Assembly (NCBI GenBank): GCA_000092065.1
Contig: CP000589.1
Origin: Ostreococcus lucimarinus
Taxonomy: Eukaryota
Reading direction: 5' to 3' (one strand)
DNA: 64,000 bases
Position 1 is the stretch's first letter, and the number at the start of each line of letters is the position of its first letter. The notes beneath the pieces are model-generated. The model was not told the origin of the DNA, ran no database searches, and worked only from the letters and a program-made list of their open reading frames with translations. Below, one piece after another: positions 11,042 to 17,896 of this stretch. A program made the position numbers and the translations under genes.

Positions 11042-12255
11042 TCGGTGTAGAATTGAGTCTTCAGCTGTCCACCGATGACCACGACGGTATACGCCGCCAA
11101 CAGCGCGGTGATGGTGGAAAACTCCATCTCTGATAAGTAGCGCTCGCCCGTGAGCGGGTTGTGCGCCATGAAAAGGGTCAGTAAAACGCCCCAACCACCT
11201 ACGAAGGTGGCCCAAAACGATCCGGCGATCCACACGGCGTCTCGAGTGAAGAGCGCGCGTGAAAGCATCAAGGCGTTACCGCTCGTGATGAACACGCTCG
11301 TGAGCACGGACAACCCCTGTAACAACTCTGGAGTGCTCAAATTGCTCGCGATTTGCGCCACGGGCATGGACATGAAGAGCGCGGTGGCGGTCCAACCGCT
11401 ACATTCGCTCCATTTGCTCGGCAGCGCGTCGGCTCGCGAGGCGAAGACGAGCGCTAAAATGGCGAGCTCAGACGGAAGCCACCCCAGCGCCGGGGTCAAC
11501 GCGTTCGATATGATCTGCGGCGTCGCGATGATGCCGATGATTCCCAAAGCGGCTTGGTACAGCTCCCACATTTTCTGCCCTCGCTCGCCGTGGGCGTAGT
11601 CGAAGTATCGCGCCACGCTGAGCGACGTCCCGGCGATGATGAACGCGCTCGACGCAAACATCACCGCCGGCGCGACGTTGTGAATGTTCCCCGTCCACGC
11701 GATTTGCGTGAGGAGCATGAACGACGTCGTCACCCCGATCGCCTGCGCCGCCGTCGCCGCGGGTTCGCGCTTATCGGCGAAGTAACTCAGCAGCAACAAG
11801 TTCCCGAGCATCCCGGCGCCGTACCCCTGCCACGAAACCGCGCCCAACGCCATCAAATCCCCCGCCATCACGTTCACGTAATTCTTCCAAATCTGCGGAA
11901 ACGTCAGCAGCGTCAACGGCGCCATCGCGAAGAAGGACAAAGTCTCCGTCGTCGCGTCCAACTTTTCCAGCGCCGTCGCCTCGCCGCGCCGTCCCTCGAT
12001 CGCGTCCCTCTCCCCTCCTCGTCGCGTCTCCCTCGCGCGCGTCGCGCGCGCCGTCCCTCCCGCGCCATCCTCTCGACCCTCCCGCGCGGCTTTCGCGGCC
12101 GTCGCGCGTCGCGCGTCGTCGTCGCGCCCCCGACTTCTGAGATTCGCCGTCGCGCGTCCAACGAACTCGCGTCCGCGCCGTCGCCCGCGTCGTCGTCCCG
12201 TCGCCTCGCCGCGCGCGTCGCGCGCGACGACGCGCGCGCGCGGCGTCACCGCCAT
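10993..12255 (-). CDS. MEX1: Maltose excess protein 1-like chloroplast maltose exporter (MEX1)
   Basis: ~9 TM; 'LLLLSYFADKRE', 'CSGWTATALFMSMPVAQIASNLSTPELLQGLS', 'GNALMLSRALFTRDAVWIAGSFWAT' match Arabidopsis MEX1. Arg/Ala-rich transit-peptide-like N-term; ATG at 12255, alternative 12285. The upstream part of the 756-aa ORF is Arg-rich read-through. Confidence 0.8.
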   Translation of the reverse strand: MAVTPRARVVARDARGEATGRRRGRRRGREFVGRATANLRSRGRDDDARRATAAKAAREGREDGAGGTARATRARETRRGGERDAIEGRRGEATALEKLDATTETLSFFAMAPLTLLTFPQIWKNYVNVMAGDLMALGAVSWQGYGAGMLGNLLLLSYFADKREPAATAAQAIGVTTSFMLLTQIAWTGNIHNVAPAVMFASSAFIIAGTSLSVARYFDYAHGERGQKMWELYQAALGIIGIIATPQIISNALTPALGWLPSELAILALVFASRADALPSKWSECSGWTATALFMSMPVAQIASNLSTPELLQGLSVLTSVFITSGNALMLSRALFTRDAVWIAGSFWATFVGGWGVLLTLFMAHNPLTGERYLSEMEFSTITALLAAYTVVVIGGQLKTQFYTDAEEDDSSQSVEITSR

Positions 12256-12759
12256 CGCCGTCGCCCGCGCGACGGTCGTCGGCATCGCCGCCGTCGCGCT
12301 CTCCCGCGCCGTCGTCGTCGTCGTCGTCGATCGCGCGTCGAAAGATCCAATCGTCGATCGTCGCGTCGGTCGCTTTTTCGACCGTCGACGACGATCGCGC
12401 GCCGATGGGCGTTCGTATCGCGTCTGTACGAGACGCGCGACGCGCGCGCGCGACGCGCCGGCGCGCGCGATCGGTCGGTCGCCGCGATCGGCGCGCGGCG
12501 ACCGACCGACCGCGCGCGCGCGTCGCGTGACTGTTTGCGCACACGGCGCGTCGACCGCGCGTCGCGCCGCGCGCGAAAATCTCGTCGCGCGGCGCCAGAC
12601 CCTGACGTTGGATGTGTTTACCTCGACGTCGCGGCGCGTCTCGCGGTGCGTATTTCGGACGACGTTTGCGGTATCGATCGATCGCGGGCGATCGACGTCG
12701 CGCTGTCGGGCGATCGCGCGCGCGCGTCGCGAGACGGCGACGCGACGACGTCGCGCGCG

Positions 12760-14355
12760 ATGGCGACGATGATGAACGCGATGGCGCGCGCGACGGCGCG
12801 CGCGTCGACGCGACGCGGCGCGCGCGAGGGACGCGCGAGGGACGGGGAGGGAAACCTCGCGCGCGAAGATTATCGGCGTCGTCGGGGGCGCGGACGTCGG
12901 CGTCGCGCGGGAACGATCGGCGGCGCGGCGTCGACGGAGGAGACGACGTCGACGCGCGGGCGCGCGGAGAGCGCGCGATACGACGACGCGGAGATACCGC
13001 GAGGCGTGGGGAGCGCGACGAAGGCGGAGCTCGCGCGGTGGCTGGAGGGGCGACGCCTGCCGGGGCAAAAGATGGCGCTGGAGGTGAACCTGGCGGAGGG
13101 ACGAGGGTTGGTGGCGACGGAGGAGATCAAGCGGGGAGAGGCGTTGCTCGGGGTGCCCAGGACGACGCTGATCACGGTGGAGCGAGCGATCGCGGAGGCG
13201 AAGTTGGGGCCGAAGCACGCCGAGCTGCAGGAGTGGAGCGTGCTGGCGACGTTTTTGGCGCAACAGGCGCTGGCGTTGGAGAGCGGGACCGCGGGGACGT
13301 TCGGGGAGTACATCAGGGCGCTGCCTCGACGCACGGGGAGCGTGTTAGATTGGCCGGAAGATGAGGTGGATAAGCTTTTGAAGGGGTCGCCGTCGCGCTT
13401 GGCGGCGGCGGAGCGACAGGATAGCGTCAACGCGGCGATTGATGAGATTCGCTCGTACTTTCCCGAAATCACGGTCGGAGCGCTTCGATGGGCGTTCGAT
13501 ATTCTTTTCAGTCGTTTGATTCGTTTGGACGCCATGGGGGGCGAGCTCGCGCTCGTGCCGTGGGCGGATATGTTGAACCACAAGCCGGGGTGCGCGGCGT
13601 TCATCGACTTGAACGGCGACGCCGTCAACCTCACCACCGATCGATCGTACGTCAAGGGCGAGCAAGTGTGGGCGTCCTACGGTCAACGACCATCGAGTGA
13701 GCTTTTGATCTCGTACGGTTTCGCCCCAGAGGTTGGTGAAAACCCAGACGACGAATACGCCCTCACGCTCGGCGTCGACGTCAACGACCCGCTCGCCGAC
13801 GCCAAGGCGCAAGTGCTCAGAGATATGGGCCTGAGTCCGGTGGAAACGTTCCCGCTTCGCTTGAACGGGTACCCGCGTCAGTTGTTGCAGTACGCGTCCT
13901 TCATTCTTTGTAACCCGGAGAAGCCGAGCGAGCTTAAGGGTTTGGCGCAGTCGGCGTTCACGGGGAGCGCGAACATCGGGCAGTCGATTTTCGATTCGGT
14001 GCGCGGCTTGACTAATGGCAAGGCGCGCGGGAAGCAAGGGGTGATTTTGGGTGGCGTCGCGGGTGAGATAGCGGTTCGAGAAATGCTCGCGGACTTGTGC
14101 GCCGAGGCGTTGAGCGCGTACCCGAACACGCTCGAAAAAGACAAGGGTCTGGCTCAAGGGCGCATGCCCGATTTCCCCGGCGCCGACGCGTGGACGGGCG
14201 TGGCGCCGGACGCGATCCGGGCGACGCAGCGTTCGGTCTCCGCGGCGCGTGTGCGCGTGTCTGAGCGACGCATCTTGGCCAAGACCGATAGTGAAGTGCG
14301 TTTGCAGTTGCGCAAATTGAAACAAAAGTCGTTGATGGACGACTTCAAGCAGTAG
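12760..14355 (+). CDS. SET-domain protein-lysine methyltransferase, Rubisco LSMT-like (SETD3/LSMT family)
   Basis: Transit-peptide-like N-term; SET core 'LALVPWADMLNHKPGCAAF...VWASYGQRPSSELLISYGF'; C-terminal Rubisco-LSMT substrate-binding-like region. The upstream part of the 933-aa ORF is antisense to MEX1. Confidence 0.7.
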   Translation: MATMMNAMARATARASTRRGAREGRARDGEGNLAREDYRRRRGRGRRRRAGTIGGAASTEETTSTRGRAESARYDDAEIPRGVGSATKAELARWLEGRRLPGQKMALEVNLAEGRGLVATEEIKRGEALLGVPRTTLITVERAIAEAKLGPKHAELQEWSVLATFLAQQALALESGTAGTFGEYIRALPRRTGSVLDWPEDEVDKLLKGSPSRLAAAERQDSVNAAIDEIRSYFPEITVGALRWAFDILFSRLIRLDAMGGELALVPWADMLNHKPGCAAFIDLNGDAVNLTTDRSYVKGEQVWASYGQRPSSELLISYGFAPEVGENPDDEYALTLGVDVNDPLADAKAQVLRDMGLSPVETFPLRLNGYPRQLLQYASFILCNPEKPSELKGLAQSAFTGSANIGQSIFDSVRGLTNGKARGKQGVILGGVAGEIAVREMLADLCAEALSAYPNTLEKDKGLAQGRMPDFPGADAWTGVAPDAIRATQRSVSAARVRVSERRILAKTDSEVRLQLRKLKQKSLMDDFKQ

Positions 14356-14578
14356 AAATCGCAGTCATCGCTTACCTTTTAATTAATTCCCAGCGGCTTT
14401 CACCTCGGCCGTGGATCGCGCTTCGTTCGCCGAGTCGCGCGCGCGCGCACGCGTAATGTTAAATTCGATTTTCTCTCAAATCTGTATTACACCCAAGCAC
14501 CACTAATCGTCTAGAGCGATCTAATCGCTCGCGACGCGCGTTCCAATCCCTCGCCAATTCGCGAAACGACTTCACGCC

Positions 14579-15073
14579 TTAAGCTTCCGGGAACTGGAAC
14601 GAGCATTCCTTCCCGGTGAGCTTCTTGTACACACCCGCGAACGTGTCGAGCTTGTACTCGGTCGTGCTGCGGTCCTTCGGGTCCAAGTACACCTTGAGGA
14701 GGCGAGAGCCGTCCAATCGGTAGCGCTGGCGCTTGCCGACAATCTCCGTCGGGTAAACCAAATCTTCCAACAACGCCGCGTGGACCGCGGTGAGAGTGCG
14801 AGATCTAGGGCGCGAGCGCGCCATGTTGTTCGACGGAACCGGCATAATGCGACGGTTCGCGACGATCACCACATCCTTACCGCTGAACTTCTTCTCGAGC
14901 TCGCGCACCAAGCGTTGTTGAATCTTGTGGTACGACTTCAACGCGCGGTACGGCACGTGAATCACGATCGCGGTACGACCGCCCGCAACCTCAACCTCAG
15001 CCGCGGAGTTGATGTAAAGATCCTTAAGATCCGCCTTGAGCTCGGCGTTCGACGCCTCGAGTTCGATCATGGC
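14579..15073 (-). CDS. RPS7: 40S ribosomal protein S7 (eS7) exon 3
   Basis: '[22 protein letters not shown]...[14 protein letters not shown]...[28 protein letters not shown]' is canonical eS7. Acceptor 'cttttcttgagCAG' with branch ACTGACG just upstream. Confidence 0.9.
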
Positions 15074-15341
15074 CTGCTCAAGAAAAGCGTTTCGCGCGCG
15101 TCAGTCGTCAAGCCCCGCGCGCGTCGTCCTCACCCATCGCACCATCGCGCCGTCTCGCGCCTATGCCCGCGCCCGTCCATCGCCGCGCACTCTCCCGAGC
15201 GACGCGCCGAAATACAATTCCCGCATTCATCGCCCTCGTCGCGCCGCCGCGCGCGCGCGCGCGCCCCGCCGCGCGCGCGATCGTCCCGACAAACCCTAAA
15301 GCCGCGCAACGCGCATCGCATCGCGTCGTCTCTCATCGTAC

Positions 15342-15395
15342 CTGCGCCACGGTCTCCTCAAACGGGGTCAACGCCGCGCCGTTCGCCTTGACAAT
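15342..15395 (-). CDS. RPS7: eS7 exon 2
   Basis: Encodes 'IVKANGAALTPFEETVAQ' (cf. human 'KIVKPNGEKPDEFESGISQ'); flanked by TAG acceptor and CAG|GTACGA donor; in-frame stop just upstream proves it is an internal exon. Confidence 0.8.
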
Positions 15396-15597
15396 CTATT
15401 CGTTCGTAATCGTCTCTCCGTCAGTCGCGGTTCGAGGCGCGTCGCGTCGGGCGCGGCGCGGCGTCGTCGCGACGTCGCGATCGTCGAAAGCCCCAGCGCG
15501 CGCGCCGCGGTCGGCGCGGGCGCGGACGCGCGGTGCGCGGGACGGCGCGCGGTGAGGCGCGCGCGATGGTCGGCGCGTCGTTCTTCTCGCGGCGCAC

Positions 15598-15612
15598 CTT
15601 CGTGGACGACAT
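15598..15612 (-). CDS. RPS7: eS7 exon 1 (5 codons MSSTK)
   Basis: ATG TCG TCC ACG AAG | GTGCGC consensus donor; joined product 'MSSTKIVKANG..' matches eS7 'MFSSSAKIVKPNG..'. Confidence 0.7.
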
Positions 15613-15803
15613 GTTCGCGTGAGTCGCTGCGCGCGTCGGAAAGACGGATGCCGCGACGCGCGCGGCGGACTCGAGGCGGTTCTAAACCCTCGTCCTTTTG
15701 GAGCGCGAGACGACGAACGCGAGACCAGGGCGAACGAGAGTGAACAAAAATAGTGTGTGTGTGCATTCAATAGAAGCCGCGAAAAAGACAGTTGAGCTTT
15801 GCT

Positions 15804-17768
15804 TTAGACGGGCATCGGACGGAATTTCAGGGGCTTGGGCTCTTCGCCACCCATGCGCTCGAGGCGGTGGGCCTCGTACTCGTCGTACGAGCCTTCGAAA
15901 AAGACGACGTTGGAGTCGCCCTCGTAGGCCAAGATGTGGGTGGCGATCTTGTTCAGGAACCAGCGATCGTGAGAGATGCAGATTGTGGTGCCGTTCCAGC
16001 TTTGGATGGCGTCCTCGAGGCATCGAAGGGTGGCGACGTCCAAGTCGTTGGTGGGCTCGTCAAGGAGGAGGCAGTTGCCGCCGCTCGTGAGCGTGCGAGC
16101 GAGCTGTAAGCGGTTGCGCTCACCGCCGGACAAAGTGCCGACCTTCTTTTGTTGATCAGCACTTTTGAAGTTGTACCAGCTGCAATACGCACGCGCGTTC
16201 ACTTGGCGAGTGCCGAGACTGATTTCTTCGGCGCCGCCGCTCAAGGTGTCGAACACCGTCTTCTCCGGGTCGAGGCTATCGCGACTTTGATCGACATACA
16301 TGAGCTTCACGGTCTCGCCCACCGTGAGTTCACCGCCGTCGGGCTTCTCTTCGCCCGTGACCATTCTGAAAAGCGTCGTCTTACCGGCGCCGTTGCCGCC
16401 GACGATGCCGACCACGGACCCGGGCGGGATGATACAGTTCAAGTCATCGATCAGCAGACCGCGACCGTCGTAGCCCTTGCGCACGCCGTTAGCGGTAATG
16501 ACGACGTCACCAAGTCGCGGCGCGGCGGGGATGGTGATGGAGTCCAGATCTTGACGCGCTTGGAACTGCGCGGCGGCTTGGCAGAGCTCTTCGTATTGTC
16601 GAAGTCTCGCCTTACCTTTTTTAACCTGACCCTTTGCGTTCGAACGCACCCACTCGAGCTCTTGCTCGATTTGACGATCGAGTGAGCTCTTCTTCTTGTT
16701 CTCAGCCTCTAGACGCTTGCTCTTACTCTCCAGCCACGTGGAATAGTTGCCTTCGAACGGGATACCCTCCCCGCGATCGAGCTCTAAAATCCAACCGGCG
16801 ACGTTGTCCAAGAAATAGCGGTCGTGCGTGATGGCGACGACGGTGCCCTTGAACGTCGCCAAGAACTGTTCGAGCCACGCGACGGATTGCGCGTCCAAGT
16901 GGTTCGTGGGTTCGTCCAGAAGCAAGATGTCGGGTTGCGAAAGTAACAACCGGCAAATGGCAACGCGTCTGCGCTCCCCTCCGGAAAGGTTTTTCACCAA
17001 AGCATCGCCTGGTGGGCAGCGAAGGGCGTCCATGGCGCGCGACACCGTGCGCTCGAGCTCCCACGCGTTGGACGCGTCGAGCTTATTCTGTAACTGGTCC
17101 ATGCGCTTCATGAGCGCGTCCACGTCGGCGTCCGGCGCCGTCATATCCACCGCGATTTGATTGTACTCATCCAAATCCGCCTGCACCGCCTTCACCCCGA
17201 CGGCGATGTTCTCAGCCACCGTTTCGCCGTCGTCCAAATCCGGCTCCTGCGCCAAGTACCCAATCTTTATCCCGGGCTCGAGATACACGTCGCCGTCGAA
17301 CGCCGTATCCGCCCCCGCCAAAATTTTCATGAGCGTTGATTTCCCCGCCCCGTTCGCCCCCAAGATCCCGATCTTCGCCCCGAGGTACATTCCAAGGTTT
17401 ATATTTTTTATCAGCTCCTTTCCGTTCGGCGTCACCTTGCGCACTTTGGACATGCTCAGGATTATCTTTCGCGTCTCCGTCTGGTACGCGCTCCCCTCCT
17501 TCACCTCCCCCGGGCTCTTGTACTTCCCCCCCGCCGGCTTCGCGCCCGCGCCGCCGCCTCCCGGCGCCGGTTTCGCGCTCGCGCCGCCCTTTCGCGCGCT
17601 CTTCTTCCCCGCCCGCGTCACCGTCGACGCCGCGCGCGCGCTCGCGCGCGCGCGGTGTCGACAACCCTCGAGCGCGCCGCCGCCCGTCGCGAACGCCGCG
17701 CGTCGCGACGCGCACCGCGCGCCTCGCGCCGTCGCGCGCGGCATCGTCGTCGTCGTCGTCGTCGCCAT
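15804..17768 (-). CDS. ABCF: ABC-F family ATPase (two ABC cassettes, GCN20/plastid ABCF5-like) with transit peptide
   Basis: Two Walker A (GANGAGKST / GGNGAGKTT), two ABC signatures (LSGGERRR / LSGGERNR), no TM domain. ORF-track start 17828 is GTG; first ATG 17768 (MATTTTTT..). Confidence 0.85.
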   Translation of the reverse strand: MATTTTTTMPRATARGARCASRRAAFATGGGALEGCRHRARASARAASTVTRAGKKSARKGGASAKPAPGGGGAGAKPAGGKYKSPGEVKEGSAYQTETRKIILSMSKVRKVTPNGKELIKNINLGMYLGAKIGILGANGAGKSTLMKILAGADTAFDGDVYLEPGIKIGYLAQEPDLDDGETVAENIAVGVKAVQADLDEYNQIAVDMTAPDADVDALMKRMDQLQNKLDASNAWELERTVSRAMDALRCPPGDALVKNLSGGERRRVAICRLLLSQPDILLLDEPTNHLDAQSVAWLEQFLATFKGTVVAITHDRYFLDNVAGWILELDRGEGIPFEGNYSTWLESKSKRLEAENKKKSSLDRQIEQELEWVRSNAKGQVKKGKARLRQYEELCQAAAQFQARQDLDSITIPAAPRLGDVVITANGVRKGYDGRGLLIDDLNCIIPPGSVVGIVGGNGAGKTTLFRMVTGEEKPDGGELTVGETVKLMYVDQSRDSLDPEKTVFDTLSGGAEEISLGTRQVNARAYCSWYNFKSADQQKKVGTLSGGERNRLQLARTLTSGGNCLLLDEPTNDLDVATLRCLEDAIQSWNGTTICISHDRWFLNKIATHILAYEGDSNVVFFEGSYDEYEAHRLERMGGEEPKPLKFRPMPV

Positions 17769-17896
17769 CGCTCGCGCGCGCGTCGGTCGCGCGCGGTCGA
17801 CGCGCGTCGCGACGATCAGTGTCGTCACTGCGACGCGACGCGTCGACGCGCGTCGTCGCGCGCGCGGCGCGATCGCGACGCGCGAGTCGCGCGCGC

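Follow-up and report, generated by a model that had tools for sequence, protein, structure and literature searches.

The locus examined here is the ordinary cytosolic ribosomal protein eS7 gene (RPS7) of Ostreococcus lucimarinus, located on the minus strand of a genomic stretch of 64,000 nucleotides (nt) (GenBank assembly GCA_000092065.1, contig CP000589.1). This whole stretch is referred to as the window, and all positions follow its numbering. Exact matches were found in the public collection for six ORFs (open reading frames) of the window, two of which are equal to XP_001419608.1 and XP_001419820.1 of O. lucimarinus CCE9901. We regard it as nearly certain that the gene as a whole is composed of three exons with two 5′ phase-0 introns and that its spliced product has 187 amino acids (aa). 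A reading made from the sequence only had proposed this model; all of its exon and intron coordinates were correct when checked on the minus strand of the sequence (Table 1). The evidence is provided by the match of the spliced product to the complete eS7 family profile and by contigs from four samples that lack exactly the two introns.

Table 1 Positions of the features of the RPS7 locus in the window
Feature	Position	Strand	Remarks
Minimal 5′ untranslated region (UTR) of exon 1	15613..15692	-	Spliced contig L005 begins at 15692
AGGGTTTAG, second telomere-repeat fragment	15682..15690	-	Located 71-79 nt ahead of the ATG, where contig L005 begins
Exon 1, coding part	15598..15612	-	ATG TCG TCC ACG AAG = MSSTK; junction AAG|ATT exact in L004-L007
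Read-through open reading frame (ORF), 63 aa	15421..15612	-	MSSTKVRREKNDAP...; from the ORF list
Intron 1, 202 nt, phase 0	15396..15597	-	GTGCGC...AATAG; 76% GC; exactly missing from L004-L007
TGGGGCTTTC block, intron 1	15486..15495	-	No variation among O. lucimarinus, O. tauri and L001/L023
CTGAC, branch-point-like, intron 1	15420..15424	-	24 nt 5′ of the acceptor
Exon 2, 54 nt, 18 codons	15342..15395	-	IVKANGAALTPFEETVAQ; accounts for Pfam profile positions 1-20
Intron 2, 268 nt, phase 0	15074..15341	-	GTACGA...GAGCAG; exactly missing from L004-L007
TTAGGGTTT, plant telomere-repeat/telo box motif, intron 2	15291..15299	-	
CTGAC, branch-point-like, intron 2	15100..15104	-	26 nt 5′ of the acceptor
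Exon 3, coding part	14579..15073	-	AMIELE...FPEA; GCC ATG ATC at 15073 to TAA at 14581-14579
Minimal 3′ UTR	14466..14578	-	Contig L007 ends at 14466
TGTAA in the 3′ UTR	14487-14491	-	88 nt past the stop codon; same place in L001

The spliced product matches the complete eS7 profile

The joined coding sequence of RPS7 comprises 564 nt. Its 187-aa product matched the Pfam family Ribosomal_S7e (PF01251) with 263.6 bits (E = 1.1e-78; cut-off, 33.5 bits), with product residues 5 to 184 spanning profile positions 1 to 182 of 182. The unspliced 163-aa ORF alone scored 242.6 bits and covered only profile positions 21 to 182, leaving the first 20 positions without cover; both the gain in score and the complete profile were obtained by adding exons 1 and 2. 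This gain, together with the exact junctions in four contigs described below, places the exon structure far above chance.

An alignment of the product to eS7 orthologues, which the sequence-only reading had suggested as a check, identified 51 matching eS7 chains in solved 40S/80S structures. The best of them were plant eS7 chains, aligned without gaps from query residues 4 to 185 to chain residues 6 to 187 (E = 3.6e-71). The 194-aa mammalian-type eS7 chain also matched (E = 8.6e-66, query 2 to 186 to chain 4 to 191), but with a net length difference of 3 residues. The residue-for-residue alignment that had been claimed for human and Arabidopsis eS7 therefore holds for the plant protein and has to be dropped for the mammalian type. 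Based on its family membership, the 187-aa protein is predicted to be incorporated into the 40S subunit.

For the N-terminus, 56 chlorophyte eS7 proteins of full length were used to build a position-specific scoring matrix (PSSM; consensus of their N-termini, KIVKEKGAEPDEFEESVAQ). The spliced N-terminus KIVKANGAALTPFEETVAQ scored 37.7 bits on this matrix, whereas the peptide obtained by reading through the first donor scored -29.0 bits. All 56 full-length chlorophyte homologues examined contain a K-I-V-K...F-E-E-x-V-A-Q block, and the spliced product carries the block K-I-x-K ... F-E-E-x-V-A-Q-A. A search of the PDB with the 23-aa spliced N-terminus alone, a query too short for phmmer, returned no matches.

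The splice signals conform to this structure. Both introns start with GT and end with AG (GTGCGC...ATAG and GTACGA...GCAG), and both contain the motif CTRAC, in each case as CTGAC, 20 to 40 nt upstream of the acceptor. Exon 2 is bounded by stop codons as the sequence-only reading had described: the TAG that terminates intron 1 (AATAG) lies in frame immediately 5′ of the exon (ATT GTC AAG...), and the exon is followed by GTACGA with an in-frame TGA three codons further on. The 80-nt leader (15613 to 15692) does not contain any ATG, which makes the ATG at 15612 the first AUG. The first exon had been described as 5 codons long, which is true for its coding part only; including the 5′ UTR, the exon measures at least 95 nt, given the start of contig L005 at 15692, and therefore does not constitute a micro-exon for the spliceosome. 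At the other end of the gene, contig L007 stops 21 nt downstream of the TGTAA at 14491-14487, which we take to be a candidate green-algal polyadenylation signal. A poly(A) tail was not seen on the L007 end at 14466.

Intron-free contigs define both splice junctions

Four contigs from four samples (L004, JGI 3300016791; L005, Logan SRR28369019; L006, JGI 3300016766, Ga0182091_1007935; and L007, JGI 3300023696) were collinear with the window at 98.4-100% identity and lacked exactly positions 15597-15396 and 15341-15074. In each of them, the exact 187-aa protein is encoded by one ORF. The junctions 15598^15395 (tested as a 58-nt string) and 15342^15073 (48-nt string) were exact in 4/4 contigs, in agreement with the junctions that had been predicted from the sequence; this is cDNA-type (complementary DNA-type) evidence of the kind the sequence-only reading had called for. 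A scan of JGI metagenome contigs for the exon 1-exon 2 junction returned only the already known L004. The upstream part of L006 (positions 192-660) was identified as an internal fragment of eukaryotic large-subunit (LSU) rRNA (RF02543, 379 bits). Since it is fused to LSU rRNA, L006 is derived from RNA. The joint between rRNA and RPS7 in this contig corresponds to window position 15634 and could be located near the real mRNA 5′ end.

From these data, we propose that RPS7 is a single nuclear gene of the minus strand that is flanked by an ABC-F ATPase gene and a SET/Rubisco-substrate-binding gene, and that it gives rise to a pre-mRNA reaching at least from ~15692 to ~14466, with two U2-type GT-AG introns in phase 0 and CTGAC branch points. 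In this model, splicing joins exon 1 (5′ UTR plus the 5 codons of MSSTK), the 18-codon exon 2 and the 164-codon exon 3 to the mRNA for the 187-aa eS7. Both short exons are invisible to ORF scanning, and ORF-based gene callers therefore give either a 163-aa protein that starts at Met25 or a protein with an intron-derived N-terminus.

The read-through ORF is probably a product of base composition

The sequence-only reading had also pointed to a chance ORF that runs across exon 1 and imitates the N-terminus of eS7. This ORF exists; it encodes 63 aa and ends at position 15421, where its stop codon is the TGA inside the intron 1 branch-point motif CTGAC. The length of intron 1, 202 nt, is not divisible by 3, which puts the ORF and exon 2 in different frames. 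Simple arithmetic predicts roughly one stop codon in every 80 codons at 76% GC, and an open stretch of 63 codons is therefore unremarkable. A Pfam scan of the 63-aa sequence did not detect any family match, and its single match in the PDB, to eS10, was weak and arginine-rich (E = 0.37). 

The likeness to eS7 lies in the peptide KVRREKNDAP. On a 10-residue PSSM, the true exon scored 16.8 bits and KVRREKNDAP 1.5 bits. In four relatives (O. tauri, L001, L016 and L019), the corresponding peptides scored -20 to -27 bits on the same matrix, and the likeness is thus missing in all of them. The V of KVRREKNDAP is dictated by the donor GTG. At the nucleotide level, a local alignment of the start of intron 1 with exon 2 gave a score of 16, compared to 13.4 +/- 2.2 for the background, which was not significant (p = 0.16); the idea that the start of intron 1 is a degenerate duplicate of exon 2 was rejected on this basis. 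The likeness of KVRREKNDAP to the eS7 N-terminus is best read as a real pattern that arose by coincidence and was noticed post hoc. We infer that the 63-aa ORF does not represent a gene product and has no function; it would be a by-product of the very GC-rich and stop-poor intron 1.

Alternative explanations for the locus

Three points weigh against the three-exon gene and the coincidental nature of the ORF. First, the cDNA nature of L004-L007 is a deduction, though a strong one, from the rRNA chimera and the intron-bearing DNA contigs. Second, the use of the ATG at 15612 is deduced from its position as the first AUG and from homology. Third, over 99.98% of random peptides with the composition of the intron are less similar to the chlorophyte consensus KIVKEKGAEP than KVRREKNDAP is; pure chance would not lead one to expect this, although the comparison was made post hoc.

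With regard to the first point, L004-L007 could be genomic and come from natural variants of O. lucimarinus in which both introns have been lost; splicing at the two sites would then lack a direct demonstration. L004 spans both neighboring genes, as a genomic contig would; moreover, the sample types of the four contigs rest on inference, and the relative L002 might likewise have an intron-free genome. However, we give this explanation only a slim chance. Besides the fusion of L006 with the LSU rRNA fragment, eight metagenomic DNA contigs of the same species (L008-L015; 97.2-99.7% identity) align with the window in one matching-length alignment over the whole locus and, as this alignment is ungapped in length, 8/8 of the DNA contigs examined retain both introns. 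When the introns were checked individually, intron 1 was identical and intron 2 differed by one single-nucleotide polymorphism in 7/8 DNA contigs; L015, the most divergent contig, was not anchored and was left out of this check. Furthermore, the intron-bearing form was found on 680 contigs, compared to 3-4 contigs with the intron-free form. A contig from a sister Ostreococcus species, L001, lacks only intron 2 and resembles a splicing intermediate. Even if the introns had been lost, a precise double loss would define the same exon boundaries.

The contig L001 (Logan SRR28326271) is 99.3% identical to L023, a genomic TARA metagenome contig of this sister species, and lacks exactly intron 2 while intron 1 is kept. 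This contig probably stems from a transcript that was spliced only in part, which suggests that the removal of intron 1 lags behind that of intron 2 or is less efficient. In intron 2, window position 15269 is G, while all seven environmental contigs L008-L014 have T.

An even slimmer chance is left for a single-exon gene in which eS7 starts at the ATG at 15070 (Met25) and has 163 aa. The ORF from this internal ATG (14579-15070) is intact and reaches the above-mentioned 242.6 bits on PF01251, and its exact 163-aa sequence is present on the 680 contigs from NCBI, JGI, ENA, Tara and MMETSP. These many database copies, however, merely reflect ORF calling on unspliced DNA. The evidence already contradicts such a protein: it would lack profile positions 1-20, including the block that is found in 56/56 full-length chlorophyte homologues, while the intron-free contigs hold the upstream exons joined in frame and the two short exons are kept in five lineages. 

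The remaining alternative, a non-chance likeness between KVRREKNDAP and KIVKEKGAEP due to the remnant of an exon 2 duplication or to the translation of an intron-retention isoform, has next to no probability: with KVR fixed, as few as 2.3e-4 of random peptides of intron 1 composition score as high as KVRREKNDAP, and the sister species has a probable intron 1-retaining transcript (L001), but the forced V, the lack of significant nucleotide similarity, the strongly negative scores of the relatives, the end of the ORF at the branch point out of frame with exon 2 and the absence of unusual RNA structure or covariation in intron 1 (see below) all stand against it.

RPS7 architecture in Mamiellales and other green algae

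The same two phase-0 introns and an 18-codon exon 2 were found in five Mamiellales lineages, including O. lucimarinus. In O. tauri (KZ155772, L003), the gene starts with ATG TCC GCC GCT TTG AAG|GTGCGT (MSAALK), followed by a 195-nt intron 1, IHKPNGAPLTSFEETVAQ|GTACGA, intron 2 and exon 3. The genomic contig L023 of the sister Ostreococcus species starts with ATG ACC CTG AAG|GTGCGT (MTLK, as in L001) and displays an equal layout. The Micromonas-like loci L016 and L019 start with MAFGARKK|GTGCGC and MSAIRKK|GTGAGC, respectively, and contain the 18-codon exon 2 followed by GTGCGT donors. For the donor GTGCGC, which the sequence-only reading had called a consensus, the comparison covered the 10 RPS7 introns of these five lineages, whose donors are GTGCGY (6), GTACG (3) and GTGAGC (1). 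The Mamiellales genes thus agree in the intron positions (one behind the K in front of I-x-K, the other behind VAQ), in the CTRAC branch points and in an early TTAGGGTTT motif within intron 2. They differ in the coding part of exon 1 (4-8 codons; 5 in O. lucimarinus) and in the lengths of intron 1 (192-227 nt) and intron 2 (268-336 nt), and the introns can be aligned only at short motifs.

The surroundings of the gene are conserved as well. In the window (~11554-17828), RPS7 is preceded by the ABC-F ATPase gene and followed by a convergent SET/Rubis-subs-bind methyltransferase-like gene, and this order is kept from Ostreococcus to Micromonas-like genomes (L003, L016-L019 and L022-L024). The stop codons of RPS7 and its convergent neighbor are only ~220 nt apart. 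In the relative L002, MSATMKIVKPGG...VAQALFDLE is uninterrupted. This contig may be DNA or RNA; its use as proof of an intron-free genome was withdrawn, since the upstream gene that it carries is likewise present on L004 and L007, which are RNA-like.

Outside the Mamiellales, Volvox reticuliferus (L020) and Cymbomonas tetramitiformis (L021), whose proteins are 70-74% identical, have an intron in phase 0 at the same VAQ|A site. In contrast to the Mamiellales gene, both lack an intron after the N-terminal K, have a first coding exon of 25-26 codons and contain 3-4 further downstream introns. Of the 4-5 introns in these genes, nearly all of which are in phase 0, only VAQ|A is common to the Mamiellales; the picoalgal RPS7 would therefore have lost 3′ introns and kept or gained 5′ ones. 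Judging from this shared site, intron 2 is old within the green algae, and by the same comparison, intron 1 is confined to the Mamiellales among the taxa sampled.

An excess of introns, which are kept, has been described for highly expressed genes of O. lucimarinus (Lanier et al., PMC2367439), and short first exons are the rule in the intron-containing genes of yeast (PMC5393171). RPS7 resembles highly expressed and ribosomal protein genes with 5′-proximal introns in that an intron is located a few codons past the start codon and in that its introns are retained. It differs from such genes in having two 5′ introns instead of one, in their high GC content (70-76%) and in the scarcity of stops in the frame of the start codon.

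A telo box motif is conserved in intron 2

The motif TTAGGGTTT in intron 2 corresponds to the plant telomere repeat known as telo box. The 64-kb window contains a single copy of it, compared to 0.05 expected copies. On the same strand and at +304 to +320 from the ATG, the motif is also present in O. tauri, L016 and L019, and it is found in intron 2 of L023 too (positions: L003, 3132; L016, 1381; L019, 1377; L023, 994). In O. lucimarinus, O. tauri, the third Ostreococcus and the two Micromonas-like lineages, it is located 36-63 nt into intron 2, and it is a single copy per locus among the loci scanned in full. A MAFFT alignment of intron 2 across genera placed the copies out of register, the introns being otherwise unalignable; the copies were therefore compared by direct position and not by alignment. 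The window contains five AAACCCT heptamers in total, two of them in RPS7.

In angiosperms, telo boxes mark ribosomal protein genes (PMC3022908). Arabidopsis genes are enriched in them in the 5′ UTR and in introns 1 and 2, and 83% of the rice ribosomal protein genes have one (PMC3022908). The Ostreococcus motif shares with the plant telo box (AAACCCTAA / TTAGGGTTT) the identical sequence, the class of gene and a fitting location, as it lies in intron 2 of a translation-related gene. It differs in that the telo box has been described for angiosperms, while the Ostreococcus copy is a putative one. A literature search did not yield any report of a telo box in ribosomal protein genes of Ostreococcus.

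It is conceivable, if on balance rather doubtful, that intron 2 owes its retention in such an extremely compact genome to a transcriptional element inside it, i.e., the putative telo box. Should the motif be functional, the control of ribosomal protein genes by telo boxes would be older than the divergence of prasinophytes and land plants, and there would be a concrete reason for the retention of introns in highly expressed Ostreococcus genes. The conserved intronic motif is the one lead from this locus that deserves follow-up.

Other contents of the introns

Apart from the telo box motif, two short blocks of intron 1 are conserved. The branch-point region CGACTGACG is invariant in the three Ostreococcus intron 1 sequences, and the TGGGGCTTTC block, flanked by ATCGCGCG, is located at +119 to +134 from the ATG (L003, 2953; L001, 285; L023, 798). 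The latter block was not found in the Micromonas-like loci, and neither an RNA structure nor an Rfam family accounts for its conservation. 

An Rfam scan of positions 14300-15900 on both strands (E <= 1) did not return any match and hence no recognizable box C/D or H/ACA small nucleolar RNA (snoRNA). The possibility that the RPS7 introns host a snoRNA or another known RNA was rejected accordingly. Folding of intron 1 resulted in a minimum free energy of -90.6 kcal/mol, which is no better than that of shuffled sequences (mean, -97.5; z = +1.77), and a covariation term of 0.02 for the three Ostreococcus species indicated no covariation. A structured or autoregulatory intron 1 was rejected on these grounds.

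Public entries with wrong eS7 N-termini

What is presented here correctly re-derives the structure of an ordinary gene, with transcript-type and comparative support; it mends a truncated annotation and is no discovery. Nothing new is learned about ribosome biology, because the exact 187-aa sequence was already included in the gene calls of JGI/IMG and Logan, the only places where a look-up found it. NCBI contains only the truncated 163-aa eS7, which lacks the conserved N-terminal 24 residues, and most metagenome and transcriptome resources have this form as well. Thus, the only practical consequence is the correction of N-terminally wrong eS7 entries in public databases. The case also provides a clean example of how tiny 5′ coding exons beside GC-rich, stop-poor introns defeat ORF-based calling in picoeukaryotes, and it agrees with the warning that intron annotation is unreliable in the O. 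lucimarinus genome when it is made without expressed sequence tags or other transcript support (PMC2367439).

Wrong eS7 N-termini that are translated from intron 2 or intron 1 are common in public Ostreococcus and Micromonas entries. Intron-derived or otherwise wrong N-termini were found in P0002 (O. tauri), P0004, P0009, P0010, P0012, P0029 and P0121. The public "partial" model P0002 of O. tauri translates a part of intron 2 and contains VRSETRWRRRMRRPRH....

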